Source: Steroidobacteraceae bacterium (GTDB lineage Bacteria > Pseudomonadota > Gammaproteobacteria > Steroidobacterales > Steroidobacteraceae). Taken from it: 64,000 bases of DNA. Positions 12,804 through 51,775 of the stretch are shown piece after piece (position 1 is the stretch's first letter; the number at the start of each line of letters is the position of its first letter). The notes beneath the pieces were generated by a model. The model worked only from the letters and a program-made list of their open reading frames with translations, searched no databases and was not told the origin of the DNA. The stretch spans positions 518 to 64,517 of the forward strand of contig DATEJG010000126.1 of the NCBI GenBank assembly GCA_035278165.1. Reading direction: 5' to 3'. The position numbers and the translations under genes were made by a program.

Positions 12804-12896
12804 AAATGCGACCTGCGTCACAGCCGCAGGCGAAAGTTTCCGCGCACCCTGCCGCTGTTGCATAACAGGGCGAAACAGCCCGTTCATGGCAGGACA

Positions 12897-16724
<3,828 letters not shown>

Positions 16725-16726
16725 CA

Positions 16727-16750
16727 GTCAGGCTGAAGCCTGACTCCTAC
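16727..16750 (-). repeat. REP-like palindrome GTAG-GA-GTCAGGC-TTCA-GCCTGAC
   Basis: Perfect 7-bp stem at 16727-16744 between convergent genes; GTAG contains the yggX TAG stop. Confidence 0.75.
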
Positions 16751-17019
16751 TTCTCCGGCTCCACATATTCCTGCGGCCGCTGCGAGCCGCCGCCGAAGAA
16801 GAACTTCTCCATCTCCTCGACCAGGAACTTGCGCGCCTTCGGGTCGATGGGCGTCAGCCGGTACTCGTTCAGCAGCATCGTCTGGTGTTTCAGCCAGCGC
16901 TGCCAAGCTTCCTTGGAGACGTTCTCGTAGATGCGCTGCCCGAGCGCGCCGGGGTACGGCGCGTAGTCCAGCCCTTCCGCCTCGACGCCGAGCAGCACGC
17001 ATTTCACTGTTCTTGCCAT
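16747..17019 (-). CDS. yggX: Oxidative damage protection / Fe(II)-trafficking protein YggX
   Basis: [46 protein letters not shown]. Confidence 0.95.
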
Positions 17020-17027
17020 GCCGCCAT

Positions 17028-17435
17028 TCAATCCTTGCGCCACACGATGCGCAAGCGGGCGGTTGCCGTCGCGACGAGCAGGCCATCTTCGTCGCGCAGC
17101 TCGCCGGTGGTCTCCGCGGTACGCGCATCGCGGGACACGAGCCGGCTGGTCGCCGTGAACATGCCGGGCTTGGCGGGCTCGAGAAACGACACGTTCAGAT
17201 TCGCGGTCACCGCGGTCGTTTCCGCGGGCAAGACTGCGTACAGCGCGAGCGCAGTCACCGAGTCGAGCATCGCGCACAACAGGCCGCCCTGCACCGTGCC
17301 ATGACGATTCAGGAACTCCGGCCGCGCGCGGAAGCGCAGCACAGCCCCGCCGTTCGCCTGGTCGATTTCGACGACCTCGCGGCCGAGCATCTGCGCGGCC
17401 GGCGGCACGTACGCGAGGATCTCGTCCTTGGTCAT
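17028..17435 (-). CDS. PaaI family hotdog thioesterase
   Basis: [31 protein letters not shown]; ATGA overlap with the upstream gene. Confidence 0.85.
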
Positions 17436-18073
17436 CGCACCGGCGCCCTGCTCCGCCGCAGCCATGACTCCACGACCAGCCAGTTCGGCACCCACGAAAT
17501 CCATGCGACCAGCGTGTAGGCGAGCGGGAACGCCACGCCGCTGATGATCAGCAGCGGCAGCTCGATGCGCAGCGTCGCGGCGGCGAACGTCAGCGCATAG
17601 TTGCGCAGAATCCAGCGACGGTGCACCTGCACCTGGCCGGCACGGATGGCGAAGTACGCACGCGCGCCGCTGTACAGCCAGAACAGCGCGAGCGTCGTGA
17701 ACCCGGCGCTGCCAACGATGCCCGCAGTGCTTTGCGGTGCGAAGTACAAACCACCCAGCCCGCCTGCGAGCACCGCGAGCAGATACACGCGCCCCATCCA
17801 CACGTGCACCCGAGGCCATGTCGTGCGCAGCTTCGCGATCACCTGGAACGGGCCGATCAGGATCGCGACCGCGCCGCCCATCGTGTGCGCCCAGCCGGCC
17901 AGCGCAGTGCCGAAGAAGTGTTCCTTGATGTGCGGATTGCCGAAGCCCTTCACGACCATGAAGATCACCGCATTGCCGGCCGCGAACACGCCGCCGAGCA
18001 GCAGCAGCGTCCAGCCGATGCGTTTCCAGAGCCTGTTCGCCGTCGGAACGGCCAGCGCAGTGGTGACGCTCAT
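17432..18073 (-). CDS. DUF2306-like membrane protein
   Basis: [52 protein letters not shown]. Confidence 0.8.
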
Positions 18074-19134
18074 AGCAGAGCACTCTGACGCGGCAAGCGC
18101 GCGGAGGGTTGCCCGGCGAGCGAACGGATCAGCTCGACCGCCGGTTTCGCAAGGCCGATTCGCGCGGGCTGTTGCGGCTCGTACCAGCGATAGCGGTCGT
18201 CGTCAGAAACGGCAGATGCCGGCGTCGCGTGTACGAGCAGCGGATGGAGCGTGAGATCGAAGTGCGTGAACGCGTGCGCGTAGGGCGGCAAGTCGACAGC
18301 ACCCTCCTCTTTCCCGATCCACGACTGCGCGGCTGCGCGCTCGTCGAACTGCGGCAGCGTCCACAGTCCGCCCCAGATGCCTGCTGGCGGGCGGCGCTCG
18401 AGCAGCACCGCGCCGTCATCGCGCACCAGCAGAACGACATAGGCCGATCGCTGCGGACGAGCCTTCTTCGGGCGCGGCGCCGGCAGCGCAGACTGCCGTC
18501 CTTCGATGCGGGCAACGCAGGGCTCGGCCAGCGGACAAGCGGCGCACAGCGGACGCGATCGCACGCACAGTGTCGCGCCGAGATCCATGATCGCCTGCGT
18601 GTAGTGCGCAACGCGCTCGGCCGGGGTGCATTCGTCAGCACGCTCCCAGAGCACTTTCTCGACTTCGCGCTCGCCGGGAAATCCCTCGATGCCGAAGTAG
18701 CGCGCGAGCACGCGTTTCACGTTGCCGTCGAGAATCGGGTGCCGCTGCGAGCGCGACAACGCGAGGATCGCGCCGGCGGTCGAGCGCCCGATGCCAGGCA
18801 GAGCCTGCACTGACTCGATCGTCTGCGGAAACTCACCCGCGTATTCCGCGACGATGATCTGCGCCGCGCGATGCAGATTGCGCGCACGCGCGTAGTAGCC
18901 CAGCCCGGTCCACAGGTGCAGCACTTCGTCGCCCGGCGCGGCCGCGAGTGCGCGAACGTCAGGAAACCGCTGCATGAACCGCTCGTAATAGCCGATGACG
19001 GTCGCGACCTGCGTCTGCTGCAGCATGATCTCCGACACCCACACGCGATACGGCGTCGGATCGTGCTGCCACGGCAGGTTCTTGCGCCCGGCGCGGTCGA
19101 ACCACGCCAGCAGCGGAGTCGCTACCGAAGTCAT
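18070..19134 (-). CDS. mutY: A/G-specific adenine glycosylase MutY
   Basis: [61 protein letters not shown] 4Fe-4S motif. Confidence 0.96.
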
Positions 19135-19910
19135 TCCCGGCACACGTGCACGCGCGTCTGGCTGAAATCGTTCACGAACGACGGCGCCAGCTCGACCATG
19201 CGGCGCGCCGTGCGCGTCAAATGCGCCTGGTCGTAGAAGCCCGTGCGCTGCGCGATCTCGGCGATCGTGCTGCGGCCGTCGACCAGCTCGAGCGCGAACA
19301 TCAGCCGGCGCCACAGCACGTATTCGCGGATGCGCACGCCCAGCTCCGCCTTGAACCGCCGCATCAGCGTGTAGCCGGACAGGCCGACGCGGCGACCCAG
19401 CTCATCCGGCGTCGGCGTATCCGTGATCTCGCCACGCAGGATTTGCAACACCTCTTCGATGCGCGCGTCCAGCTCGTGAGGCGGCGCGTCGATGCCGCCG
19501 AACGCCTGCAGGATCGTGTGCGCAGCGCGCTGCGCCTCGCGGCAATCGCACGTGCCCTCGAACAGCGCGTCCCACGGGATCGACCGGCCGGCGAGCGCCG
19601 TGAAATCGAGCTTGACGATCGGCTGATCGCTCAACAGCGGCTTGATGTAGCAGAACCAGGGATGATCCGGGCCGATCAGCACCGTGACCGCGCGGCCGTT
19701 GCGGGCGTCGATGCGGTGCCACGCGTTCGGCGCGACGACTGCAGCCTGGCAGACCACCGGCCCGGCATCGCGCGACATAAGCGTGACGGGCGCATCGGGC
19801 GCGATCGTGACGATCGCCCCGAAATGACGGTGGCTGGAATTCTCGCGGCCCGGACCCGCGGAAATGACCAGCCGATCGCATGCATAGATTTGAATCTGCG
19901 CCAGTTTCAT
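19131..19910 (-). CDS. AraC family transcriptional regulator
   Basis: HRHF cupin-like N-terminus; [22 protein letters not shown]; [18 protein letters not shown]. Confidence 0.88.
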
Positions 19911-20046
19911 ACAAGCAACGGCAATGCCGGATTGCGCACAATGCACGCGCTTCGCATAGCCGGTCTCCGGTCACGCAACCCGGGGGCAACGAGCGGCGTC
20001 CAAGTGCAGGCGTAGTTTACGGGCTTTCCACATTGGGGAGTTGAGT

Positions 20047-21783
20047 ATGCGTTCCGTACAGAGCATGGCGGCCGCCGTCGCGGCAGTGCTGTGGGCGACC
20101 GGCGCCTCGGCCACGGCTCCGATCGATCACGTCGACAACTTCGCCCTGCTCGACCAGGCGGGCAAATACCACGACCTCTACTACCTGTCGGACGCCAAAG
20201 CCGTCGTGCTGATGACGCACGACGACGAGTGCGCCGCCGTCAGCGAAGCGCTGCCCGCGCTGGAACGGGCCAAGGCGAGCTATGGCAGCCGCGGCGTCGA
20301 GTTCCTGATGATCAACGCGCAGGACGACCGCGCTGCAGTCGCCGCCAAGGTCCAGGGCTCGAGCATCCCGGTGCTGGTCGACGATACGCACCTGGTCAGC
20401 GAGTCGCTGCAGCTCGCGCACGCCGGCGAAGTGCTGGTGATCGATCCGAAGGGCTGGAAGATCGCGTACCGCGGTCCGCTCGACAAGGCCAAGGCAGGCA
20501 ACGCCCTGCTCACCGGCGCGCTCGACTCCGTGCTCGCCGGCCAGCCGGTGAAGAAGGCTCAGGTCGCCGCGCGCGGTTGCGCAGTCAAGCTCACGAAGGC
20601 GGAGAAGGCCGGTGTGAAGGTTTCGTACTCCGAGCAGATCGCGCCGCTGCTGATCGACAACTGCGTCACCTGTCACCGCACCGGCGGCATCGGCCCGTGG
20701 CAGATGTCCAGCTACGACACGATCAAGGGCTTCGCGCCGATGATCCGCGAAGTGGTGCGCACCAAGCGCATGCCGCCGTGGCATGCCGATCCGCACATCG
20801 GCGTGTGGGACGGCGATCGCTCGCTGTCGACCGCAGAGAAGCAGACGCTGGTGCACTGGATCGAAGCCGGCGCGCCGCGCGGCAAAGGTCCGGATCCGCT
20901 CGCCGACCTGCACAAGACCTGGAGCGAGTGGGCGTTCGGCAAGCCGGACATGGTCATCGAAGTGCCGGCGTACGACGTGCCCGCCACCGGCATCGTCGAC
21001 TACCAGCGCTACGTGGTGAAGAACACGCTCGGCCGCGACGTGTGGGTGCGCGCGACCGACGTGATCCCCGGCGACCGCACCGTCGTGCATCACGTCATCG
21101 TGGGTGTCTACGACCCGAAGATCCCGGATGAGCGGATGCGCATGATCAAGGCGTCGAGCCCGTCGCTGGGCGCGTACGTGCCCGGCAACGGTCCGACGAT
21201 GTATCCGCAGGACACGGGCGTGCTGGTGCGCGCGGACCAGTCGTTCGCGTTCCAGATGCACTACACGACCTCGGGCAAGACGGCGCACGACGTGACGCGC
21301 TTCGGCCTGTACTTCCGCGATAGCGCGCCGACCTACGAGTTCAAGACCGTCGCGCTGGCGAATCCGAACCTGAAGATTCCGCCGAACACCAAGGAGCACG
21401 CCGAGACGATCACGCAGCAGTTCCCGCGCGACATCATCATCTACCGGCTCACGCCGCACGCGCATTATCGCGGCCGCGCTTCCGAGTTCGTCGCGATCTA
21501 CCCGGACGGCAACGAGGAAACGCTGCTGTCCGTGCCGAAGTACGACTTCAACTGGCAGACCACCTACACGCTGCATACGCCGAAGCAGGTGCCGGCGGGC
21601 ACGAAGATCGTGCACACGACGATCTACGACAACTCCTCGCAGAACCCGGCAAACCCGGATCCGAACCGCACCGTGCCGTGGGGCGAGCAGTCGTTCGACG
21701 AGATGCTGTACGGCGTCGTGCAGTTCCGCGAGCTGACGCCGGTGGGTGCGCCGGCGCAGGTATCGTCGAACGCGGGGAAGTGA
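20047..21783 (+). CDS. Exported redoxin + c-type cytochrome + copper type II (PHM/DBM-like) monooxygenase fusion protein
   Basis: Signal peptide; redoxin-like N-terminus (DNFALLDQAG, VLVIDP..AYRGPLD, RGC); CVTCH and RMPPW; VHH, QMHY, PHAH, DEM; GGGGAG RBS. Confidence 0.8.
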   Translation: MRSVQSMAAAVAAVLWATGASATAPIDHVDNFALLDQAGKYHDLYYLSDAKAVVLMTHDDECAAVSEALPALERAKASYGSRGVEFLMINAQDDRAAVAAKVQGSSIPVLVDDTHLVSESLQLAHAGEVLVIDPKGWKIAYRGPLDKAKAGNALLTGALDSVLAGQPVKKAQVAARGCAVKLTKAEKAGVKVSYSEQIAPLLIDNCVTCHRTGGIGPWQMSSYDTIKGFAPMIREVVRTKRMPPWHADPHIGVWDGDRSLSTAEKQTLVHWIEAGAPRGKGPDPLADLHKTWSEWAFGKPDMVIEVPAYDVPATGIVDYQRYVVKNTLGRDVWVRATDVIPGDRTVVHHVIVGVYDPKIPDERMRMIKASSPSLGAYVPGNGPTMYPQDTGVLVRADQSFAFQMHYTTSGKTAHDVTRFGLYFRDSAPTYEFKTVALANPNLKIPPNTKEHAETITQQFPRDIIIYRLTPHAHYRGRASEFVAIYPDGNEETLLSVPKYDFNWQTTYTLHTPKQVPAGTKIVHTTIYDNSSQNPANPDPNRTVPWGEQSFDEMLYGVVQFRELTPVGAPAQVSSNAGK

Positions 21784-21790
21784 GCCCGGA

Positions 21791-21813
21791 GTCAGGCTGA
21801 AGGCCTGACCCAC
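21791..21813 (-). repeat. REP-like palindrome GTGG-GTCAGGC-CTTCA-GCCTGAC
   Basis: 7-bp stem at 21791-21809 between convergent genes. Confidence 0.7.
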
Positions 21814-21836
21814 ACAAACAGGTGGCCAGCAGACTC

Positions 21837-22427
21837 TCAGTTGCTGGCCGCTTTTTCTTGGCGATCCTTCGCCTCGATCTCGACGTTCATGAACAGGTCG
21901 CCGGTCGCATCCTCCAGTGTGCGCAGCATCCAGCGCCGGCCGAGCACCGAAGGCACCCAGAAGCCGGGCGTGATGCTGGTTCGATAGGTCACGAGCGTGC
22001 CGCCGCGCTCATCCGGCGCCAGCTGGGTGTGCGTTTCGCCGAACTTCACGTCGCTGCGGCTCGGGTCGGCCTTCGCCGCCAGCGCGAGCTGCGACTCTTC
22101 GACCCGCTCGACGCGGGTGACGTTGCGGCAGAAGAGCCCGCCGATGCACACGCGCAGCGTCGTTTCCAGCATCACGATGTTCGGCTCCGGCCGCTCCAGC
22201 ACGCGCGCCTGCAAAATATGCGTGTTCAGCGCCGGGTAGTGCTCGTAGTCGCGCAGGACCGCCTCGACCTTGTCGGGCGGCGCGTCGAGCCGGACGTTCA
22301 TCTCGCACTGATAGCGCCGGTCCGCGTAACGCGTTGCGCTGTGCTCGATCTCGAAGGCGCCGGCCGGTGCGGCCTGCAGCGCGGCGGTCAGCCCGGCGGC
22401 AGCGAAAATGAACCGTTGCATGGACAT
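21837..22427 (-). CDS. Exported SRPBCC/START-like protein
   Basis: Signal peptide (AAPAGA/FEIE); LDAPPDKVEAVLRDYEHYPAL; GTLVTY...PGFWVPSVLG helix-grip pattern. Confidence 0.6.
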   Translation of the reverse strand: MSMQRFIFAAAGLTAALQAAPAGAFEIEHSATRYADRRYQCEMNVRLDAPPDKVEAVLRDYEHYPALNTHILQARVLERPEPNIVMLETTLRVCIGGLFCRNVTRVERVEESQLALAAKADPSRSDVKFGETHTQLAPDERGGTLVTYRTSITPGFWVPSVLGRRWMLRTLEDATGDLFMNVEIEAKDRQEKAASN

Positions 22428-24705: not shown

Positions 24706-25668
24706 CTAATCCAGCGGCCGCGTGCTGACGCAGTTCCTGCCGGCCGCCTTGCTGGCATAGACGCCTTCGTCGCAGCGGCCGACGAGCGCGTCGAAGGTCG
24801 CGCCTTGCGGCACCACGTCTTTCCAGCCGGCGACGCCGAAGCTCGCGGTGACGGCCAGCCCGCCCTGGACGCCGGGAAACGGCGTGGCGGCAATGTGCGC
24901 GCGCAGGTGCTCGGCTGCGACCGCCGCGTTGGTCACGTTGGTCTCCACCAGGACGATCATGAACTCCTCGCCGCCATAGCGCGCGACCCAGTCGCTGGCG
25001 CGCACCCCGGTCTGCAGCTGCGCGACGAACCACTTCAGCACGTCGTCGCCGACCAGGTGGCCCTGCGTGTCGTTGATGCGCTTGAAGTGATCGACGTCGC
25101 ACATGATCGTCGCGAGCTGCCGCCCGTAGCGCGCGGCGCGCTCGATCTCCCGCGGCAGCTGTTCCGTGAGATAGCGGCGGTTGTACGCGCCGCTCAAGGG
25201 ATCGGTGATCGACAACCGCCGGTTCTCTTCGTTGGCAGCGCGCAGCGAGCGCTCCAGCGTCACGATGCGCCGCCCGGTGTTGAGCCGCGCCATCAGCTCC
25301 GGCTCGATCACGGGCTTGGTGAGATAGTCGTCGGCGCCGGACTGCAGCCCCGTCACCAGGTGCTCGATGGCGTCGCGAGCGGTCAGCAGGATCGTGTAGA
25401 TGTAAGCCTTGCCAGGTGTCGAGCGCAGCTCCCGGCACAGCGCGATGCCGTCCATCTCCGGCATCTCCCAGTCGGTGATCATCAGCTGGAAGTCGCCGGC
25501 GGCGATTTTGGCGAGCGCCTCGCGGCCGTTGCCCGCCACTTCGACGCTGTAGCCGGCGCGCTTGAGGAGCCGGGCCATGATGAGCCGCTGCGTGGGCTCA
25601 TCGTCAACGAGCAGGATGCGCCAGGCCTCCTGCGACGTCGCGCTCGGTGAAGCTGCGGGCTCGCTCAT
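24706..25668 (-). CDS. REC-GGDEF diguanylate cyclase
   Basis: LLVDDEP, ITDWEMPEMDG; DVDHFKRINDTQGHLVGD; RASD I-site (RxxD) followed by GGEEF. Confidence 0.92.
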   Translation of the reverse strand: MSEPAASPSATSQEAWRILLVDDEPTQRLIMARLLKRAGYSVEVAGNGREALAKIAAGDFQLMITDWEMPEMDGIALCRELRSTPGKAYIYTILLTARDAIEHLVTGLQSGADDYLTKPVIEPELMARLNTGRRIVTLERSLRAANEENRRLSITDPLSGAYNRRYLTEQLPREIERAARYGRQLATIMCDVDHFKRINDTQGHLVGDDVLKWFVAQLQTGVRASDWVARYGGEEFMIVLVETNVTNAAVAAEHLRAHIAATPFPGVQGGLAVTASFGVAGWKDVVPQGATFDALVGRCDEGVYASKAAGRNCVSTRPLD

Positions 25669-27972: not shown

Positions 27973-29142
27973 GCCTTGTTTCCCATTCCACTCCCGCACC
28001 GCACCCTCCAGCGCCTCCCCAGGCATCGGGCGGCCGATGAAGTAGCCCTGGGCGCGGTCGCACTCGACCGAGTCGAGGAAGTCGAGAACTTCCTGCGATT
28101 CGACGCCCTCGGCGCAGGCAGTCAGACGCAGCTTGTGCGCCAGCAGCACCATCGTATCCACCATCGTGCGCGCGTCCTCGTGCGCCAGGACGTCACGCAC
28201 GAACGAGGTGTCGATCTTCAGCTCGCTGAACGGCATCAGGTACAGCTGCTTGAGCGAGGAGTAGCCGGTGCCGAAGTCGTCGATCGACAGGCCGAAGTTC
28301 TTGACGCGCATGCGGGTGAGCACGTCCATGGTCGTGCCCGGGTCGAACATCGCGGCGCTCTCGGTGACCTCGAAGATGAGGCGGCGCGCGTCGGCGCCGA
28401 CCTGCGCAGCCATGCGCGCGACCTGGTCCGGGAACGACAGGTCGTTCAGGAGCTGCGGCGACAGGTTGATCGCGACCGAGAGCTCCAGCCCCGCCGCATC
28501 CCACTTGCGACATTGCGACAGCGACGTCTCGAGCACCTGCTCGGTGAGGCGGCGGATCAGCCCGTTCTTCTCGGCGAGCGGAATGAAGCGGGCCGGCGAG
28601 ATGAAGCCCAGCGAAGGATGATGCCAGCGCGCCAGCGCTTCCACGCCTTCGACGATCCAGCGCTTTGCGGCGACGCGCGTCGCCTTCGGCTGGTAGTGGA
28701 CCTTGATTTCCTGCGCATCGAGCGCCGCCGCGAGCACGGCGGGATTGATCGGCGAATCGGCGCGCAGGCACTGGCGCAGCGTGACCTCGAGATCCGCGAG
28801 CAGGATCGGCTTCTGCAGCGCGCCGATCATCTGCAGGCCCTGCGCCTTGCCGATCTGCTGCGCCGTGGCCAGCACGCGCTGATCCATGCCGCTCGCGACC
28901 AGCACCTGCGCCTTGCTGCCGCGCTCGCCGAGATAGCGCAGCAGCTCGATGCCGTCCGCGCCGGGCATCTGCAGGTCCAGCACCACGACGGTCGGCTGGA
29001 AATCCTGCACCGCGCGCCGGAACTGGTCGGGCTCCGTGACGGCCAGCGACTCGAAGCCGAGGCCGGTGGCGGCCTCGGAGATGAATTCGCACAGGTCCGG
29101 CTGATCGTCGATCACCAGCAGCTTGTTCGCCGGCTCAGGCAA
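27967..29142 (-). CDS. REC-EAL c-di-GMP phosphodiesterase
   Basis: VLDLQMPGADG; VEALARW, AINLSP, FEVTE, IDDFGTGYSS, ELKID, AEGVE, QGY; TTG start. Confidence 0.9.
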   Translation of the reverse strand: MPEPANKLLVIDDQPDLCEFISEAATGLGFESLAVTEPDQFRRAVQDFQPTVVVLDLQMPGADGIELLRYLGERGSKAQVLVASGMDQRVLATAQQIGKAQGLQMIGALQKPILLADLEVTLRQCLRADSPINPAVLAAALDAQEIKVHYQPKATRVAAKRWIVEGVEALARWHHPSLGFISPARFIPLAEKNGLIRRLTEQVLETSLSQCRKWDAAGLELSVAINLSPQLLNDLSFPDQVARMAAQVGADARRLIFEVTESAAMFDPGTTMDVLTRMRVKNFGLSIDDFGTGYSSLKQLYLMPFSELKIDTSFVRDVLAHEDARTMVDTMVLLAHKLRLTACAEGVESQEVLDFLDSVECDRAQGYFIGRPMPGEALEGAVREWNGKQGQ

Positions 29143-31549
29143 CGCGCGCCTCCCGATCCAGCACCAGACGGATGCGCGTCGCCAGATCCTCGTTCCGATA
29201 AGGCTTGGTGATCACTTCCGCGCTCGTGAGTCCGGCGGTGCCGGCGAGCGTGCTGGCGTCGGCGTACCCGGTCGTGAACAGCACTTCGATCTCCGGCCGC
29301 AGCTCGCGCGCGCGAGTCGCGAGCGCCGGGCCGAGCATGCCGCCGGGCATCATGATGTCTGTGAACAGCAGGTCGATGCGCTCCGTGCCGGAAAGAATGC
29401 GCAGCGCGGCGTTGCCGTTCGGCGCCGACAGCGCGCGATAGCCGAGTTGCGAGAGCGCGGTGACCACCGTCTCGCGCAGATCCGCGTCGTCCTCGACGAC
29501 CAGGATCGTCTCGTTGCCGCCCGGTGACAGCTTGGTGGTGACGATCGTGTCCTCGCGCACCGTCTGCTCTTCCAGGCAGCGCGGCAGCAGGATCGTCACG
29601 GTCGTGCCTTCGCCGACCGTGCTCTCGATCGTGGCCACGCCGCCGGCCTGCTCCGCGAAGCTGTCGACCATCGCGAGACCGAGGCCGCTGCCGCGCCCCG
29701 ATTCCTTGGTCGTGAAGAACGGCTCGAACACGCGCTTGAGCACGTCGGGCTCGATGCCGACGCCGGTGTCGCTGACGCTGATCGACACGAACTCGCCCGG
29801 CTCGATCTCCGGGTGCTCGCTGCAGAAGATCGAATCGAGGTAGACGTTGCGGGTGCGCACCGTCAGGCGGCCGCCCTCCGGCATCGCATCGCGCGCGTTG
29901 ATCGCGAGATTGAGGATCGCGTTCTCGAACTGGCCGGCGTCGACGCGCGTGTGCCACATGTCGTGCGCCTGCACCATGTGCACCTCGACCGACTCGCCGA
30001 GCGTGCGCTGCATGAGCTCGGTCAGGCCCGACAGCTGCCGGTTCAGGTCGAGCACGACCGGATCGAGAATCTGCCGGCGCGCGAATGCCAGCAAGCGACG
30101 CGTCAGGTCCGCGCCGCGCACGGCCGCGCGCATCGCCGTGTGAACCTTGCGGGCCAGGGTCGGCGTCTCGGAGACGCTGCGCTCGAGCAGCTGCAGGTTG
30201 CCGATCACGACGCCGAGCAGGTTGTTGAAGTCGTGCGCGATGCCGCCCGTGAGCTGGCCGATCGCTTCCATCTTCTGCGCCTGCAGCAGGCGCGCCTCGA
30301 GGCGCCGCTGCTCGGTGAGATCGTAGATGATCGAGAAGAAGCCGAGCACGTTGCCGTTGCCGTCGACCTGCGGCACGTAATGATTCTGCCACTCGCGCAT
30401 GATGCCGTGACGCATGCCGGTGTGGCGCGAATGCACGCGCTCGCCTTCCAGCACCTTGTCGACGTACGGCATCACCGTCGAGAACATGTCCGTCGGCAGC
30501 AGCTCGCGCAGGCTCTTGCCGAGCAGGTCGGAGCTCGGCCGCCCGACCCACTCCTCGAACGCGCGATTCACGTAGCTCATCGCCAGGTCGCGATTGAAAT
30601 AGTTGATCGGCGTCGGCACCGCGTTCAGCGTCAGCTCGAAGAAGTCGCGCGTCTCGCGCAGCTGGCGCTCGGCGACCACGCGATCGGTGACGTCCTGCAG
30701 CGTGCCGTGCAGGCGCACGATCTTGCCGTTGCGGCGCTCCGCTTTGATGATCATGCGCACCCACAGCTGGCGGCCGCGCGCGCTGGTCAGGCGCAGATGC
30801 AGGTCGCTGCTGGCGCCGCTGTCGATCGCCTGCTGCGAGGCCTCGATCAGCTTCTTGCGATCCTCCGGCTGGAACATCTCGCGGCTCGCTTCGAGCTCGA
30901 TCGGCTGCCCGAACGGCAGGTCGTGGATCGCGTACAGCGCTTCGGTCCAGTGCACCTTGCGCGTCTCGACGTCGTATTCCCAGCCGCCGATGCGCGCCGT
31001 GGTCTGCATGTCCTTCAGCAGGTTGTCGAGCCGCACGCGCTCGCCGACGTCGTGGAACACGAGCACGGTGCCGACCGTCGCGCCGTTCTCGGTGACCGGC
31101 ACGATGCGGTATTCGACCGGGCGGAACTGGCCGTTCTTCCGACGCAGCAGCGCGCCGACGCCGCGCATGATGTCGGTGGTGTAGCGCACGCGGCGCACGG
31201 GGTCGGTGCGGTTCTCGTCGTCCGACTGCGTGTTGATCAGGACGCGGTAGTCGAGCCCCGGCAGCTCTTCGATGTCGTAGCCGAGCAGCTTCGCCGCAGC
31301 AGGATTCGCATAACGGACCTGGCCGACGTTGTCGAGCTCGAGCACGCCTTCGCCCGCGCCTTCGACGATCGCCTGGTTGCGGCGATTGCTGGCAACAGCG
31401 CCGCTCGCGCGCGCCGGTGTTCCTTTACTCTGGCGGGCGCGCGCCAGCAGCCATACGAGCGGAACGCCTGCGAGCAACAGGCCGGCGACGAGACCTGCGA
31501 TCCCGGGAGCGGTGAGCAGGCCCTGCAGCCCCCCCGTTATTGCGTCCAT
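29135..31549 (-). CDS. Hybrid PAS sensor histidine kinase (TM, 3 PAS, HisKA, HATPase, REC)
   Basis: LTGGIAHDFNNLL, NLAINARDAM, PFFTTK..GSGLGL, LLFTDIMMPG. Confidence 0.92.
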   Translation of the reverse strand: MDAITGGLQGLLTAPGIAGLVAGLLLAGVPLVWLLARARQSKGTPARASGAVASNRRNQAIVEGAGEGVLELDNVGQVRYANPAAAKLLGYDIEELPGLDYRVLINTQSDDENRTDPVRRVRYTTDIMRGVGALLRRKNGQFRPVEYRIVPVTENGATVGTVLVFHDVGERVRLDNLLKDMQTTARIGGWEYDVETRKVHWTEALYAIHDLPFGQPIELEASREMFQPEDRKKLIEASQQAIDSGASSDLHLRLTSARGRQLWVRMIIKAERRNGKIVRLHGTLQDVTDRVVAERQLRETRDFFELTLNAVPTPINYFNRDLAMSYVNRAFEEWVGRPSSDLLGKSLRELLPTDMFSTVMPYVDKVLEGERVHSRHTGMRHGIMREWQNHYVPQVDGNGNVLGFFSIIYDLTEQRRLEARLLQAQKMEAIGQLTGGIAHDFNNLLGVVIGNLQLLERSVSETPTLARKVHTAMRAAVRGADLTRRLLAFARRQILDPVVLDLNRQLSGLTELMQRTLGESVEVHMVQAHDMWHTRVDAGQFENAILNLAINARDAMPEGGRLTVRTRNVYLDSIFCSEHPEIEPGEFVSISVSDTGVGIEPDVLKRVFEPFFTTKESGRGSGLGLAMVDSFAEQAGGVATIESTVGEGTTVTILLPRCLEEQTVREDTIVTTKLSPGGNETILVVEDDADLRETVVTALSQLGYRALSAPNGNAALRILSGTERIDLLFTDIMMPGGMLGPALATRARELRPEIEVLFTTGYADASTLAGTAGLTSAEVITKPYRNEDLATRIRLVLDREARVA

Positions 31550-34014: not shown

Positions 34015-34701
34015 TCAGGCCGAGCCGTGGCTCACGCTGGGCGCCCCGCCGCGGTCGGCGACCCACTGGGTGGCGTAGCGGATCAGCTCGCTGGTCGAGC
34101 GCAGGTTGAGCTTCTCGCGCATGTGGCGCCGGTGCGCATCCACGGTCTTCATCGACAGGTCCAGCCGCTGCGAGATCTCGCGGGTGCTGATGCCTTCGCC
34201 GATGAGGCGGAAAACTTCCAGCTCCCGCTCGGTGAGCGCCGAGACCGGGTCTTCGTCCACTCCGGGCGCGCGGCCGCGGGCGACTTGCGTCAGCAGACGC
34301 TCGCCCATTGCGGCGCTGACGTGCTTCTGTCCCCGGGCGACTTTGCGCAGTGCACCAAGGAAATCAGTCCCGGCCACATTCTTCATTACATAACCACTGA
34401 CGCCCAGCCGGAGCAGCCGCTCGGCGTAGAGGGCTTCGTCCTGCATGGACAGCACCAGGACGCGGACGGTGGGGTGCGCGCCGCGGATCCAGCGCACCAG
34501 GTCGATGCCGTCGTCCGCCCCGAGCGCGAGGTCTACGACGGCGACATCCGGCTTGTGTGTATCGATTGCGGTCCGCGCGTCCGGGATCGATGACGCCTCC
34601 GCCGCCAGCAGGAATTCGCTCTGACCCGCGAGCAATTGCTTCAAGCCCTCGCGGACGAACGGGTGGTCGTCGACGATCACGATCCGGGTCTGCTCCGCCA
34701 T
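34015..34701 (-). CDS. NarL/LuxR family response regulator
   Basis: VIVDDHPFVREG, VLSMQDE, LTERELEVFRLIGEG, LSMKTVDAHR. Confidence 0.92.
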   Translation of the reverse strand: MAEQTRIVIVDDHPFVREGLKQLLAGQSEFLLAAEASSIPDARTAIDTHKPDVAVVDLALGADDGIDLVRWIRGAHPTVRVLVLSMQDEALYAERLLRLGVSGYVMKNVAGTDFLGALRKVARGQKHVSAAMGERLLTQVARGRAPGVDEDPVSALTERELEVFRLIGEGISTREISQRLDLSMKTVDAHRRHMREKLNLRSTSELIRYATQWVADRGGAPSVSHGSA

Positions 34702-34832
34702 GCTGGTTCCTCTGGATTCCTTTGCGAACGAGTCTTGCGGTGCGATCTACCGGGGGCAATCCTCATTTTCCACAAGCGCCGCAGAGTGATAGCGTTGCCG
34801 CCGGACACGGAAGGAAGGGCTGCGACGGCATT

Positions 34833-36290
34833 ATGAAGAAAGGTACGACCGCACCGCTGCGTTTCGTGCTGCTGGAAGACGATCCCAACGACGCCGAGCT
34901 GATCCAGTTGCAACTGGCGAAAGACGGCATCGAGGTGGAATGGCGACACGTCGTCACCGAGCGCGACTTCCGTGAGGCATTGGCCGGCGCACCGCCGGAC
35001 CTGGTGCTCGCCGACTACACCTTGCCCGGCTTCGACGGCCTGGCGGCGCTGAAGATCCTGCTGCAGCACTCGCCGGACATCCCCTTCATCTTCGTTTCCG
35101 GCTCGCTTGGCGAGGAACGCGCCATCGAGGCGCTGAAGAGCGGCGCGACCGACTACGTGCTCAAGGACCGGCTGCAACGGCTGCCCGCCGTCGTCACGCG
35201 CGCGCTGATGGAAGCTCGCGAGCGCCGCGAGCGGCGCCTGGCCGAGGCAGCTCTCGAAGAGCAGCGTGTGCTGCTTGGCACGCTGATCGACAGCCTCCCG
35301 GAGATCATCTACGCGGTCGACCCGAGCAATCGCGTGACCGTCGTCAACAAGGCGCTGCTGGACACGCTGAAGCGCAGGCGCGACCAGGTGCTGGGCAAGA
35401 CGCTGTCGGAGATCACGAGCGACGAGAACGTCGCCGACATCGAGGCGCAGGCCGCCACGACGATGCGGACCGGGCGCGCGCTCACCGATCAGGAGCGTGC
35501 CTGGATCTCGCCGGACGGCTCGGTGCGCTGGTTCAACTTCACGCACGTGCCGCTGCGCGACCACGGCGGCGTGTCCGGCCTGGTCTGCACGGTGCAGGAA
35601 GTCACGACGCGGCGCGAGCTCGAGCAGGAAATCCTCGAGATCTCCAATCGCGAGCAGCGCCGGCTCGGCAGCGACCTGCACGACGGCCTCGGCCAGGAGC
35701 TGACCGGGCTGTCGTTGCTGCTGAAAGGCCTGGAATTGCAGCTGTCGCGCGAAGCCCCGCAATACACGGCGCACACGACCAAGATCGCCGACCTGCTGGC
35801 GCACGCGATCCAGAGCACGCGCTCGCTGGCACGCGGCCTCGCTCCGGTGAACCTGGAGCGCGGCGGCCTGCCGGAGGCGCTCAAGCATCTGGCCGCACGC
35901 TGCACCGATATTTACAGCCTGGAATGCACGTTCGGCAACGAGAGCCCGAAGCTGCCCGACCTGGAAGAAGGCGCAGCGACGCACCTGTATCGCATCGCGC
36001 AGGAAGCGACGACGAATGCAGCTCGTTACGCACGGGCGAAGACGATCGCGATCGACCTGCGCTCCACCGGCCGCAAGCTCCAGCTCTCCATCGCCGACGA
36101 TGGCATCGGGCTCTCGGCCGGACTCGCGCAGCGCAGTCCGGGAATGGGGCTGAAGATCATGGAATACCGTGCGCGCATGCTCGGCGGCACGATCAACTTC
36201 GAGGAGCCCGGCCCGGGAACGCGCATCGTGCTGTCGGCGCCGCTGCACCTGCTGCGGCAATCGAAGGACAAGCTGCGCCGGGCGGTGTAG
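34833..36290 (+). CDS. REC-PAS-HisKA_3 histidine kinase
   Basis: VLLEDDPND, LADYTLPGFDG, ATDYVLKDRL; DLHDGLGQELT, YRIAQEATTNA, GMGLKIM. Confidence 0.9.
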   Translation: MKKGTTAPLRFVLLEDDPNDAELIQLQLAKDGIEVEWRHVVTERDFREALAGAPPDLVLADYTLPGFDGLAALKILLQHSPDIPFIFVSGSLGEERAIEALKSGATDYVLKDRLQRLPAVVTRALMEARERRERRLAEAALEEQRVLLGTLIDSLPEIIYAVDPSNRVTVVNKALLDTLKRRRDQVLGKTLSEITSDENVADIEAQAATTMRTGRALTDQERAWISPDGSVRWFNFTHVPLRDHGGVSGLVCTVQEVTTRRELEQEILEISNREQRRLGSDLHDGLGQELTGLSLLLKGLELQLSREAPQYTAHTTKIADLLAHAIQSTRSLARGLAPVNLERGGLPEALKHLAARCTDIYSLECTFGNESPKLPDLEEGAATHLYRIAQEATTNAARYARAKTIAIDLRSTGRKLQLSIADDGIGLSAGLAQRSPGMGLKIMEYRARMLGGTINFEEPGPGTRIVLSAPLHLLRQSKDKLRRAV

Positions 36291-36298
36291 GTCGGGCT
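36287..36298 (+). repeat. Truncated REP-like remnant GTAG-GTCGGGCT
   Basis: Identical to the first 12 nt of the 2169 copy; GTAG contains the kinase TAG stop; lies between convergent stops. Confidence 0.4.
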
Positions 36299-37499
36299 AC
36301 TTTCGCACCACCGGGACGAGCGTGTGGTCCGCGCCGTTCCACACCTGGATGAAGTTCTCGATCTCCGCGGCCGGCATCGCCGATGCGATGAAGTCGCCCT
36401 GCATGGCGTCGCACGCGCTCTGGTCGAGGAACTCGAACACTCCGGGCGTCTCGATTCCTTCCGCGCAGACGGTCAGCGACAGGTTGTGCGCGAGGTCGAT
36501 GATCGCGCGCACGATCGTCCCCGCCGGCTTGGCAGTCGCGATCTCCGCGATCACCAGGCGGTCGATCTTCACTTCGCTGAACGGCATCTTGTAGAGCTGC
36601 GTCAGCGACGACGTGCCGACGCCGAAGTCGTCGAGCGAAAGGCCGACGCCCTTGACGCGCAGCCGAGTGAAGATGTCCATCACCAGCTCGGGATCGTCGA
36701 GCGAAGCCGCTTCGGTGACCTCGAGCGTGAGCTGCTCGGGCGCGACCTCGAACTCGCGCAGCGTGCGCGTCAGGCGATCCGGAAACTCCAGGTCCTGCAC
36801 CAGCCGCGGCGACAGGTTGACCGCGGCGGCGAGGTCGAGCCCGCGATGCCGCCAGTGGCCGATCTGCCGGATGGCGTCGGTGAGCACGAAATCGGTGACG
36901 TTGACGATCAGGCCGGACTGCTCCGCCAGCGGCAGGAACTCGCCGGGATAGAGCAGGCCGAGCCGCGGATGGCGCCAGCGCACCAGCGCCTCGGCGCTGC
37001 GCACCTGCCAGTCGCCGCCGGCGCGCAGCACCTTCGGCTGGTAGTGGACGACGAGCTCGTGCTCTTCGATGCCGCGACGCAGCTCATCCACGGAAATCCG
37101 AGCGCCCGGCTCGAGGTGCTTTGCAAGCATGCTTTCGATCTCCTCGAGCATCGCCGGCTTCTGCAGCGTGCCGAGCATTTTCAGGCCAAGTGAATCGCCG
37201 AGCTGACGGGCGCTGGCGAGGACGCGCTGGTCCATGCCGCTCGCGAGCAGGATGCCGGACGTGACGCCCTGCCGCGCCAGGTAGCGCAGCGCCTCGATGC
37301 CGTCCATGCCGGGCATCTGCAGGTCGAGCAGGATGAGCGAAGGCTGGCGGCGCCCCACCTGGTCGCGAAAGCTCGCGGCGGTATCGGCAGTGATGACGTC
37401 GCAGCCGATTCCCTGACCGATCTGCTCGATCAGCTCCAGGAAATCGGTCTCATCATCCACCGCCAGTAACAGGTTCCTCTCGCGCCGGGACACGCTCAT
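36297..37499 (-). CDS. REC-EAL c-di-GMP phosphodiesterase (second paralog)
   Basis: LLDLQMPGMDG; AEALVRW, AVNLSP, LEVTE, LDDFGVGTSS, EVKID, AEGIE, QGD. Confidence 0.9.
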   Translation of the reverse strand: MSVSRRERNLLLAVDDETDFLELIEQIGQGIGCDVITADTAASFRDQVGRRQPSLILLDLQMPGMDGIEALRYLARQGVTSGILLASGMDQRVLASARQLGDSLGLKMLGTLQKPAMLEEIESMLAKHLEPGARISVDELRRGIEEHELVVHYQPKVLRAGGDWQVRSAEALVRWRHPRLGLLYPGEFLPLAEQSGLIVNVTDFVLTDAIRQIGHWRHRGLDLAAAVNLSPRLVQDLEFPDRLTRTLREFEVAPEQLTLEVTEAASLDDPELVMDIFTRLRVKGVGLSLDDFGVGTSSLTQLYKMPFSEVKIDRLVIAEIATAKPAGTIVRAIIDLAHNLSLTVCAEGIETPGVFEFLDQSACDAMQGDFIASAMPAAEIENFIQVWNGADHTLVPVVRK

Positions 37500-43738: not shown

Positions 43739-45865
43739 TCAGCGCACGGTGAAAAGGATGCGGTCGACCAGCCGGCCATTCGCATCCTGAAGCTCCAGCA
43801 GATGCGAGCCGGGCTGCGGCGTCCACAGCAGCGAGCCCCCCGCCGACGCGAGCCGCTTGCCGTTGAGCTGCAGCTGCATCTTCGCAGTCGCGCCCTCGGC
43901 GCTGATCAGCACCTTCTGATGGGCAGGCGGAATGTCCGGATCGGAAGCGATCACCATCCCGTTCGCCGGCGTGACGATGCGCGCGATCTGCGCGGCACGA
44001 GCGATCGTCGCTACTGCATCCGGCTGCTGTTGCCCGGCGAGGAACCACTCGCGTCGACGGGGCTCGACTGCCGGCTCGAACGTAGCGGCCGTCGCGATCA
44101 CACCTGCAGGCGGCTGCGGCGCAACCGAGGCCACGTTCTGATGCAAGGCGCTCATGATCTCGCGCCACACCGGCGCCGCACCTGTCACGCCGCTGACGTC
44201 ATGCATCGCGTCGCCCTCGAAGTTGCCGACCCACACGGCGACCGTGTAGCGCGACGAGAAGCCGATGCACCAGTTGTCGCGCATGTCCTTGCTGGTGCCG
44301 GTCTTCGCCGCGCTCCAGAAGGGCGTGTTGAGATGATTGTCCATGCCGAACGTCAGGGCGCGCGCCGCAGGATCACTGAGGATGTCGCTGACGATGAACG
44401 CCGCATCCGCCGGCAGCAGGCTCGACTGCGGCTGCACGGATTCATCCGTGAGGACGCGCAACGGCGACCAGCGGCCGCCCGCCGCGAGCGCGCGATAAGC
44501 CTGCGCCTGCTGCCACAACGTCACCTCCGCCGAGCCGAGCGCCAGCGAGTAACCGTAGAAGTCGCCTGCCTCCTTGATCTGCACATACCCCAGCGCGTTC
44601 AGGCGATCGCGGAACGGCTCGACTCCGACCAGCACGAGCGTGCGCACCGCAGGGATGTTCAGCGAGCTGCCGAGCGCCGTGCGCACGCTGACCAGGCCTT
44701 TGAAGTCCTTGTCGTAGTCCTGCGGAATGTAGGCGCCCGTCGCAGTGTCGAGATGTACGGGCGAATCCTTGAGCAGCGATGCCGCGGTGATATAGCGGCG
44801 TTCCAGCGCCAGCTCGTAGAGGAACGGCTTCAGTGTCGAGCCCGCCTGGCGCAAGGCGCGAACACCGTCCACTTCGCGCGAGCGGGAGCGCGGGCCCGCC
44901 GATCCCACGTAGGCCAGCACGTCGCCAGTCGCGTTGTCTGCGACGAGCACGGCGCCGTCGCGGACATTGCGATCGTACAAGGAGCCCAGCTGCTGACCGA
45001 GAATGTCGCGCGCGAGTCGCTGCACGCCGGCGTCGAGTGTCGTCTGCACACGTTCGCCGGCAACGCGCAGCTTCGTATTCGCCAGTTGCGGGGCGAGCTG
45101 CGGCACGGGCGGCGAATCGACGCCATGAGTCAACAGCAACGTCGCTGCTGCCTGCAGCTCATCACAGCTTGCAACCATTTTCGCAGCAAGCGCCCGACCG
45201 CATGCACGCGCCGCGATGCGCTCCGGAGCGCCGTTCGGCTCCGGCAAGAGCGCCGCGATCACCAGGCTCTCCGGCAACGACAAGCCCGACGGCACCTTGC
45301 CCGCGAGCAGATGCGCTGTCGCGCCGATGCCCTGCAGCTCGCCGCGAAAATACGCGAGATTCAGATACGCCTCGAGGATCTGCTCCTTGCTCCAACGCTT
45401 CTCGATAGCCAGCGCCAGCCGTACCTGATTGCGCTTGTGCCGCCACGCCGACGGTCCTTTGCGCGAGTGCGGTCGAGACTCCAGGAGAGAGGCAACCTGC
45501 ATGGTGATCGTGCTCGCGCCGCGCGCTCGCCCGCGCAGAAATCGATCACGTGCCGCGCCGGCGACGCTGCGCCAGTCGATCCCACTATGTTCGCGGAAGC
45601 GCGCGTCTTCGCCGCGTACGACTGCCGCGACGAGCGCTGGAGAAACGGCGGTCAGCGGTTGCCACTCGAAGCGCCTGACGTCGAGGTTGATGCGGCTCGT
45701 GTCCAGTACGACGCCGTTGCGGTCGAGCATGAAGGCATCGGAAGGCGTGAAGCTCGCGCGCACGGTGGCGAAGTCCGGTGCGCGCGCAGGCCACGCCAGC
45801 ACGAGCACGGCCGTGATGACCGATGCCGCGAGCGAGCCAAGCGCCATTCGCATGCGTCGGCTCAC
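43739..45865 (-). CDS. pbpC: Penicillin-binding protein 1C
   Basis: EDARF, RGASTITMQ, LEAYLN transglycosylase motifs; GSTLKP (SxxK), SLN (SxN), KTGT; downstream of alpha-2-macroglobulin. Confidence 0.92.
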   Translation of the reverse strand: MSRRMRMALGSLAASVITAVLVLAWPARAPDFATVRASFTPSDAFMLDRNGVVLDTSRINLDVRRFEWQPLTAVSPALVAAVVRGEDARFREHSGIDWRSVAGAARDRFLRGRARGASTITMQVASLLESRPHSRKGPSAWRHKRNQVRLALAIEKRWSKEQILEAYLNLAYFRGELQGIGATAHLLAGKVPSGLSLPESLVIAALLPEPNGAPERIAARACGRALAAKMVASCDELQAAATLLLTHGVDSPPVPQLAPQLANTKLRVAGERVQTTLDAGVQRLARDILGQQLGSLYDRNVRDGAVLVADNATGDVLAYVGSAGPRSRSREVDGVRALRQAGSTLKPFLYELALERRYITAASLLKDSPVHLDTATGAYIPQDYDKDFKGLVSVRTALGSSLNIPAVRTLVLVGVEPFRDRLNALGYVQIKEAGDFYGYSLALGSAEVTLWQQAQAYRALAAGGRWSPLRVLTDESVQPQSSLLPADAAFIVSDILSDPAARALTFGMDNHLNTPFWSAAKTGTSKDMRDNWCIGFSSRYTVAVWVGNFEGDAMHDVSGVTGAAPVWREIMSALHQNVASVAPQPPAGVIATAATFEPAVEPRRREWFLAGQQQPDAVATIARAAQIARIVTPANGMVIASDPDIPPAHQKVLISAEGATAKMQLQLNGKRLASAGGSLLWTPQPGSHLLELQDANGRLVDRILFTVR

Positions 45866-51639: not shown

Positions 51640-51775
51640 GATCCGCGAACCTCGAATTCTTATTCGGACTGAGGCGAAGCGTGCCTCACGCCGGGCGGCG
51701 CCGCCGTGACGCTTCCGGTCATGCCGCTGACGAATCGTGGCAATTTGTGGAGGGTGTGCCACCGCTCCGGTGGAA

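Follow-up and report, generated by a model that had tools for sequence, protein, structure and literature searches.

Peptidylglycine alpha-hydroxylating monooxygenase (PHM) and dopamine beta-hydroxylase (DBH, or dopamine beta-monooxygenase, DBM) are textbook copper enzymes, in which the transfer of electrons between the two coppers and their arrival from the reductant are still debated. In a 2020 metalloproteome review, both are placed in the eukaryote column only (PMC7435645). Here we describe a gene on a 64,000-nucleotide stretch of contig DATEJG010000126.1 from a Steroidobacteraceae bacterium (the window), whose product, referred to below as the copper protein, combines a signal peptide, a thioredoxin-fold redoxin-like domain, a mono-heme cytochrome c domain and a PHM-like copper domain in a single chain. 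With moderate confidence we interpret it as a periplasmic, noncoupled two-copper monooxygenase of the PHM/DBM type that would be reduced via its fused cytochrome c; the redoxin-like domain we take for an accessory linked to it. Automated annotation already sees parts of this three-domain protein: its nearest named relatives, from metagenome-assembled genomes (MAGs) of Steroidobacteraceae, are annotated merely as 'redoxin domain-containing protein', and one relative bears the JGI name 'AhpC/TSA family / Copper type II ascorbate-dependent monooxygenase, C-terminal domain'. NCBIfam holds no specific model for the copper protein.

The likeness to PHM is carried by a predicted structure and by the register of the metal ligands. 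An AlphaFold2 model was computed from 33 homologues (mean predicted local distance difference test, pLDDT, 77; predicted template modelling score, pTM, 0.68), with core strands mostly at pLDDT 80-95. When model residues ~290-565 were compared with the PDB using Foldseek, human DBH (4zel) was the best match, at E 1.2e-11 and across both lobes, and some 30 rat PHM entries matched at E ~1e-10 over 270-300 aligned columns (template modelling score normalised to the target, TM, 0.5-0.6); among the best 50 Foldseek matches listed, no bacterial structure was closer than PHM and DBH. The model has the two-lobed beta-sandwich core of the superfamily formed by PHM, DBM and tyramine beta-monooxygenase (TBM). 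The family profile was aligned by hhalign with the rat PHM catalytic core (100% identical to PDB 1sdw_A, its position 1 being PAM residue 44), and the two are collinear over 220 columns at about 15% identity (E 0.0027, probability 11%). Each putative copper ligand falls on a copper ligand of PHM in this alignment (Table 1), and Q405 and D553-E554 are likewise in register with PHM Q170 and D312-E313. The copper protein would thereby carry both ligand sets of the PHM/DBM/TBM superfamily, His-His plus a distal His for CuH and His-x-His plus Met for CuM. Pfam Cu2_monoox_C (PF03712) matches residues 440-535 marginally, at 23.2 bits in the whole protein and 25.1 bits in the isolated region against a cut-off of 23, and scores as high as 31.6 bits among relatives.

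The same ligands are conserved throughout a large family. Two sets of homologues were aligned, a close one of 33 sequences at 55-91% identity and a distant one of 41 sequences down to ~32% identity, and the cytochrome c plus PHM-like part was searched with phmmer against 1.84 billion cluster representatives (50% identity), giving 14,238 clusters at E <= 1e-3 and 2,384 at E <= 1e-30. Ligand and cysteine counts refer to the top 150 cluster representatives, 140 of which have a complete core and 122 a redoxin-like domain. In all 33 close homologues C64, C180, C208, C211, H212, M244, H350, H351, H407, H473, H475 and M555 are invariant, which goes well past what chance would give. The ten heme and copper ligands are all intact in 135 of the 140 complete cores, and C208, C211, H212 and M244 are present in every one. 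Among the 41 distant homologues, CxxCH with M244, H350, H473, H475 and M555 occur without exception, and H351 and H407 in 40 each. A first-pass annotation made from the letters of the window had recognised the PHM/DBM-type ligand set, and had named beforehand its non-conservation in homologues as grounds for giving the idea up; the predicted fold, the rat PHM register and these counts speak for the ligand set instead.

The cytochrome c domain has the features of a class I c-type cytochrome, namely a CxxCH motif, a distal Met that is the presumed heme ligand, and a small helical domain, which the model resolves into three helices (196-209, 225-241 and 264-275). Pfam Cytochrome_CBB3 scores 17-22.6 bits in the copper protein itself, below the cut-off of 27, and exceeds that cut-off in two relatives, P0121 (37.1 bits, together with Haem_bd at 27.4 bits) and P0147 (34.1 bits). 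Residues 1-27 have a pLDDT below 50, and the N-terminus is hydrophobic in all members of the 33-homologue alignment; the predicted signal peptide and the putative c-type heme place the copper protein in the periplasm. Export and the three-domain architecture, both read by the first-pass annotation, thus find support in Pfam, predicted fold and conservation, and every residue coordinate that it gave (CVTCH, HH, QMHY, HAH, DEM, HDDEC, RGC) is right. The profile searches that it had suggested came out unevenly: AhpC-TSA/Redoxin matched and Cu2_monoox_C did so marginally, but Cu2_monooxygen (PF01082) gave nothing and Cytochrome_CBB3 stayed below its cut-off in this protein.

From these domain identities and conserved ligands we infer heme and copper occupancy, the direction of electron flow and the chemistry with O2. 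The c-heme would accept single electrons from the pool of respiratory c-type cytochromes in the periplasm or from bc1, and would hand them to CuH (H350, H351, H407); CuM (H473, H475, M555) would bind O2 and hydroxylate a C-H bond of a substrate other than peptidylglycine. The enzyme had been described as self-sufficient in the first-pass annotation, which goes too far, as the fused relay would still need a reductant from outside. Ascorbate is not expected in the bacterial periplasm, and ascorbate dependence of the copper protein is doubtful given its predicted periplasmic location and fused heme.

As to the substrate, the peptidylglycine-binding residues R240, N316 and Y318 of PHM fall on R469, Y557 and V559, and R469 is variable in the family (R/S/A/N/K). 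A peptidylglycine-specific hydroxylase, or PHM proper, was therefore rejected, and the substrate probably differs from that of PHM because these three residues are not kept. Around CuM the 33 homologues have invariants of their own, R477, YDFNWQ (501-506) and DNSxQNxANPDP (530-541), and the position of Arg477 beside the CuM histidines may hint at an anionic substrate.

Several points weigh against a PHM-type enzyme. PF01082 does not match the N-lobe, even at E <= 10, and the family profile, compared with the PDB by sequence, does not reach PHM or DBH. Cu2_monoox_C lies barely above its cut-off, and the hhalign probability is only the 11% given above. Since sequence-profile support is this thin, the link to PHM rests on predicted fold and ligand register; the route by sequence alone failed, with PF01082 silent and only redoxins found in the PDB. 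AlphaFold2 confidence is low in the loop after Met244 and at residues 536-554, which adjoin Met555. No conserved neighbour pointing to a substrate or an electron donor was seen at the best 80 of more than 590 loci, a minimum count, from species-representative genomes, the set used for all locus-level comparisons. A full-text literature search in which few subscription journals were covered found no paper on a bacterial cytochrome c-PHM protein, in line with the statement of the first-pass annotation that it knew of no biochemical characterisation of this architecture.

Table 1. Features of the copper-protein gene and its surroundings, with window positions and, for putative copper ligands, the rat PHM residue in register in the hhalign alignment.
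Feature	Position	Strand	Rat PHM residue	Basis
Gene for exported redoxin-like / cytochrome c / PHM-like copper protein	20047..21783	+		Open reading frame listing; 100%-identical 578-aa database copy
Sec-type signal peptide MRSVQSMAAAVAAVLWATGASA	20047..20112	+		Sequence reading; predicted cleavage after A-S-A
Thioredoxin-fold redoxin-like domain, residues 29-187, without CxxC	20125..20601	+		Pfam, PDB sequence matches, Foldseek
Cys64, first-Cys position of CxxC, in HDDEC	20230-20232	+		Alignment to 2ywi, 3u5r, 2cvb
Cys180, distal 'GC' motif (RGC)	20578-20580	+		Alignment to 2ywi, 3u5r, 2cvb
Mono-heme class-I-type cytochrome c domain, residues 196-280	20626..20880	+		Pfam in relatives, AlphaFold2 helices, conserved ligands
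CVTCH heme motif (C208, C211, H212)	20662-20676	+		Sequence; invariant
Met244 of RMPPW, putative sixth heme ligand	20770-20772	+		Invariant in family
PHM-like N-lobe, residues 297-430, CuH-type ligands	20929..21330	+		Foldseek 4zel, 1phm/3mll; hhalign register; conservation
H350/H351 (HH), CuH-type ligands	21088-21093	+	H107/H108	hhalign register
H407 in QxHY motif (QMHY), CuH-type ligand	21259-21261	+	H172	hhalign register
PHM-like C-lobe, residues 431-565, CuM-type ligands	21331..21735	+		Pfam Cu2_monoox_C, Foldseek, hhalign register
H473/H475 (HAH), CuM-type ligands	21457-21465	+	H242/H244	hhalign register
M555 in DEM, CuM-type ligand	21703-21705	+	M314	hhalign register
AraC/XylS-family regulator gene, lineage-specific	19131..19910	-		HTH_18 E 2e-15 (about 19179-19397)
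Divergent intergenic region, 136 bp, presumed promoters	19911..20046	.		Conserved in 91% relative except 76-bp insertion
Terminator-like hairpin between copper-protein gene and convergent SRPBCC gene	21820..21853	+		Single consensus match, not above shuffled expectation; weak

The N-terminal domain matches Pfam AhpC-TSA/Redoxin at residues 29-146 (33.8 bits, cut-off 26), and in sequence searches of the PDB, with the single sequence as with the family profile, thioredoxin-fold proteins alone were reached. The best of these are 2ywi, 3u5r and 2cvb, both of whose cysteines align with Cys64 and Cys180, and which Foldseek also retrieved with the N-terminal domain of the model, at TM 0.71-0.76; ResA and DsbE/CcmG are the next-best PDB sequence relatives. 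The first-position Cys, the YRG motif and the C-terminal GC cysteine of the 2YWI/3U5R/2CVB-type proteins are all present. That the domain has no CxxC, with a single Cys in HDDEC and another in a distal RGC, had been noticed in the first-pass annotation; the local sequence is C64-A-A-V, the family motif C-x-x-V/S/A, and a true CxxC occurs in 2 of the 83 Cys64-bearing representatives. The missing CxxC active site rules out a thiol-disulfide oxidoreductase of the TlpA/ResA/DsbE type. Nor is the domain a peroxiredoxin (AhpC/TSA proper), as PxxxTxxC is absent and LMTHDDEC has neither Pro at -7 nor Thr at -3; the Pfam match reflects the fold only.

The two cysteines come and go together: of the 122 representatives with a redoxin-like domain, both are present in 76, neither in 39, Cys64 alone in 7 and Cys180 alone in none (Fisher p 4e-25, phylogeny not corrected for), and this co-variation is the pattern of a disulfide pair. 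The 39 Cys-less members retain every heme and copper ligand. They also keep F34, L36, D38, the cis-Pro P110, D114 (100%), E130 and Y143-R144-G145 at unchanged frequencies, so that the domain appears to be kept for some further reason that does not involve thiols. All three domains are fused in 121 of the 150 top representatives. About 8 genuine members consist of signal peptide, cytochrome c and PHM-like domains with no redoxin domain and have kept their heme and copper ligands; 15 such forms were apparent before fragments and miscalled starts were set aside (P0212 ends at a contig edge).

A split form of the fusion is found on a TARA marine scaffold (L090:1999-4142), where a gene for a 436-aa protein with signal peptide, cytochrome c and PHM-like domain is followed by a separate redoxin gene whose start is overlapped by its end by 4 nt, in the manner of translational coupling. 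The separate redoxin is a 278-aa lipoprotein with GCPVT, YRGP and PGC features as in the fused domain, and has an unusual, Cys-rich N-terminal linker, CLTCEKSWAFCECQPEECCAEESQACDCC. Two other redoxin-less members that were examined have no neighbouring redoxin gene. Frequent fusion and the coupled split form argue that the functional link between the redoxin-like domain and the heme-copper core is real. Where present, the Cys64/Cys180 pair would probably form a redox-active disulfide that serves regulation, protection or auxiliary reduction, and the domain may in addition serve a thiol-independent binding or scaffolding role.

The first-pass annotation went further and saw an internal wire from thiol to heme to copper. 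In its obligatory form, a Cys64/Cys180 dithiol, recharged by a DsbD/CcdA-type pathway, would reduce the heme and then the coppers. This is unlikely, though it fares best among the alternatives. Fusion in most representatives, retention as a translationally coupled gene in the one case of fission, strong co-variation of two cysteines that both align with those of 2ywi, 3u5r and 2cvb, and the existence of a 'reduced' PDB entry, 2ywo, for the 2cvb protein all fit it, yet the wire cannot be obligatory, because the third of members without the Cys pair keep all other ligands, as do those without any redoxin domain. The scarcity of canonical CxxC among Cys64-bearing members tells against it too, and by established redox chemistry a two-electron, low-potential dithiol would be an unusual feeder of a one-electron c-heme. 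No DsbD/CcdA-type gene lies nearby in the window or in the flanks of the 80 loci.

Second among the alternatives, and also unlikely, is a role in handling O2 or peroxide, as a cytochrome-c-dependent oxidase or peroxidase or in the removal of reactive oxygen or nitrogen species: copper would reduce O2, H2O2 or nitrite with electrons from the heme, and the peroxiredoxin-like domain would take peroxide. In its favour, the gene stands alone, without catabolic or biosynthetic partners; AhpC/TSA is the best Pfam match of the N-terminal domain, and CuM of PHM binds the small ligands nitrite, azide and CO, according to PDB titles. The full CuH and CuM set is nevertheless kept, including the Met typical of O2-activating hydroxylases, and the invariant polar block near CuM (R477, YDFNWQ, DNSxQNxANPDP) points to a specific organic ligand. 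Cys64 takes the place of the first Cys of thioredoxins rather than sitting in a PxxxTxxC motif, and frequent paralogues and Ig, CBM48 and EF-hand modules fit diversified substrates.

Much less probable than either is a redoxin-like domain that acts outside the catalytic cycle and serves maturation in cis only, keeping the CxxCH cysteines reduced in the manner of ResA, CcmG or TlpA, or loading metal. It does lie immediately N-terminal of the CxxCH domain, and ResA and DsbE/CcmG, its next-best structural-database relatives by sequence, are apocytochrome c reductases; these, however, use the CxxC that is missing here, and its closest relatives are the 2ywi/3u5r/2cvb group rather than ResA. Moreover, the Cys-less third of the family still encodes CxxCH, and His and Met copper ligands need no thiol reduction. 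Least probable of all is a non-catalytic copper buffering, delivery or electron-shuttle protein on a PHM-like fold, for which one may cite a gene without conserved context, a family with no known activity and a fold superfamily that has copper-free members such as PNGase F, but in which two geometry-specific ligand sets and Q-x-H-Y would hardly be strictly kept in a family of 14,238 clusters and down to ~32% identity, and the fused heme implies redox turnover.

For the preferred reading, a PHM/DBM-type monooxygenase reduced through its cytochrome c, the spread and architectures of the family provide further context. The gene in the window is, by these comparisons, one ordinary member of a very large family. 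Its best 80 loci belong mostly to Gammaproteobacteria (Steroidobacteraceae and marine Pseudomonadales-type lineages) and Burkholderiales, and several of the hosts are cultured; cultured hosts include Steroidobacter flavus, S. gossypii, Peristeroidobacter agariperforans, Povalibacter uvarum DSM 26723 and HTCC2143. Several species have two paralogues per genome at unrelated chromosomal positions, as in Steroidobacter flavus (L001, L029), Peristeroidobacter agariperforans (L006, L022) and the Pseudomonadales MAG OY761542 (L043, L055), which would agree better with diversified substrates than with one housekeeping function. Extra modules are joined to the cytochrome c plus PHM-like core in some members, including EF-hands, Ig/He_PIG, CBM48/AMPK1_CBM, TPR and an N-terminal BlaR1-type M56 membrane domain, predicted to be a membrane peptidase or sensor domain, and in one 1251-aa member the whole three-domain unit is duplicated in tandem (P0121, P0147, P0178, P0211, P0238 and P0152 show such modules or duplication). 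Fusion to carbohydrate-binding (CBM) and Ig modules could be a hint that the substrates are polymers or surfaces. Cytochrome c plus the PHM-like domain is apparently the invariant functional unit, because it recurs with or without redoxin and with varied extra modules.

More broadly, and more tentatively, these proteins could represent an overlooked and very large bacterial branch of the PHM/DBM enzymes, in which ascorbate would be replaced by a fused, respiratory-linked c-type cytochrome for C-H hydroxylation in the periplasm, probably of diverse environmental or envelope substrates, and in which the disulfide of the thioredoxin-like domain might gate or protect the enzyme. If so, a bacterial relative with a built-in and spectroscopically visible heme donor would offer a natural system for timing the delivery of electrons to CuH and CuM without ascorbate, and its expression and mutagenesis should be simpler than those of its animal counterparts. 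Members of the family are plentiful in Gammaproteobacteria from soil and sea and in Burkholderiales, often with two copies per genome. As the family has no assigned function, identification of a substrate would annotate thousands of genes; it might also reveal a new periplasmic oxidation reaction. With several cultured hosts at hand, the question is directly testable.

The open reading frame (ORF) of the copper protein extends over 20041-21783 (+), 580 aa, opening at TTG 20041 and ending in a stop codon at 21781-21783. Its start is probably ATG 20047 in place of this TTG, because the exact database copy (100% identity) has 578 aa and because a GGGGAG ribosome-binding site 6-7 nt upstream of that ATG is kept, along with the ATG, in the 91% relative. 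Two further ORFs overlap the gene, one antisense at 20017-21813 (-), 598 aa, and one at 20091-21131 (+), 346 aa; as genes they were rejected as typical high-GC artefacts. The GC content of the window is uniform at ~67%. Sequencing runs that contain the locus are soil, rhizosphere, root and mine-tailings metagenomes and one metatranscriptome.

Divergently from the copper-protein gene lies the AraC/XylS-family gene, which the first-pass annotation took to induce it in response to a substrate. Its ORF covers 19131-19946 (-), 271 aa, with a probable start at ATG 19910, since the homologue in the 91% relative has 259 aa; the protein has no equivalog match. Neither a sigma-70 consensus nor AraC operator repeats were detected at 19890-20060. 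The 91% relative (L002) has the same neighbourhood, AraC gene included, and in it the stop of araC and the start of mutY share 4 nt, at the head of a co-directional array araC-mutY-DUF2306-thioesterase-yggX with overlapping stops and starts. In the window, 16747-19910 (-) is a tightly packed array of araC, mutY (HhH-GPD and NUDIX_4), and genes for a DUF2306 membrane protein, a 4HBT thioesterase and a yggX-like Iron_traffic protein. The 67% relative lacks the genes for AraC, DUF2306 and 4HBT and has mutY directly upstream of the copper-protein gene; relatives at 55-59% identity have an unrelated gene context, and the AraC, SRPBCC, MutY and AsmA proteins of the window recur in none of the 80 loci. 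As the AraC gene thus accompanies the copper-protein gene only as far as the 91% relative, induction by AraC finds no support from conservation. The pairing is, on this comparative evidence, a recent and lineage-specific adjacency, with local regulation possible, and the AraC protein may belong to the mutY array rather than to the copper enzyme, because araC heads that tightly packed, co-directional array and because AraC, DUF2306 and 4HBT are all missing from the 67% relative.

Elsewhere, too, the surroundings vary. De novo clustering of the flanking ORFs at the 80 loci gave no neighbour cluster in more than 12 loci, and the commonest clusters were generic enzymes of acyl-CoA and lipid metabolism, encoded on one strand or the other. 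The window holds no paralogue, no ccm gene and no copper-handling gene. The copper-protein gene is, to judge from its context, a stand-alone unit. Convergent with it, at 21837-22427 (-), is a gene for a secreted SRPBCC/Polyketide_cyc2 protein of 196 aa with a signal peptide, which also adjoins the copper-protein gene in the 91% and 67% relatives (L002, L003, L004), though at none of the 80 wider loci. Farther off, a 1966-aa bacterial alpha-2-macroglobulin with bMG3, MG2, A2M_BRD, A2M and bMG10 domains is encoded at 45862-51762 (-). The window is also rich in signalling genes, at 12858-16724 (+), 24706-25668 (-), 29135-31549 (-), 34557-36290 (+) and 36297-37499 (-), with products that comprise a 1288-aa hybrid PAS histidine kinase with Hpt, a GGDEF response regulator, two further PAS histidine kinases and an EAL response regulator.

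Among known systems, the redoxin-like domain resembles 2YWI (Geobacillus), 3U5R (Sinorhizobium SMc02350) and 2CVB/2YWO (Thermus), with E values of 1e-11 to 3e-8, and shares with them the motifs C-x-x-V/S/A and YRG as well as the cysteine of the distal GC. These proteins, which we take to be the group called 'PRX_like1' in CDD, are stand-alone, of ~190 aa and with no assigned function, whereas the copper-protein domain is fused and has lost its cysteines in a third of the family. For the pairing of heme and copper, the cytochrome-c-tethered three-domain nitrite reductase (NiR) of Ralstonia pickettii and the cytochrome domain of cellobiose dehydrogenase (CDH), which feeds lytic polysaccharide monooxygenases (LPMOs), are instructive: in both, a heme domain delivers single electrons to an extracytoplasmic copper and replaces a diffusible reductant. 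Their copper domains are unrelated to the present one (a cupredoxin trimer and the LPMO histidine brace) and perform other chemistry, and the heme of CDH is heme b, so that the comparison is one of analogy and not of homology.

The copper domain itself finds its best structural match, and a common catalytic core, in the group of DBH, tyramine beta-monooxygenase and MOXD1 (4ZEL). DBH resembles the copper protein in that a further domain, DOMON, precedes its catalytic core. Other proteins bind heme with the DOMON fold; in DBH the domain is not known to do so, and it is no c-type cytochrome. The donor of DBH is ascorbate, regenerated through cytochrome b561, and unlike the copper protein the enzyme has no redoxin domain and acts on phenylethylamines. 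PHM (1PHM, 1SDW, 3MLL) is alike in the predicted two-lobed beta-sandwich, in the register of the CuH and CuM ligands and in the QxHY and DEM motifs. It is, however, a eukaryotic, ascorbate-dependent enzyme of the secretory pathway, whereas the copper protein is bacterial, predicted to be periplasmic and equipped with a putative c-heme and a redoxin-like domain, and the invariant R477, YDFNWQ and DNSxQNxANPDP belong to the bacterial family and not to PHM.

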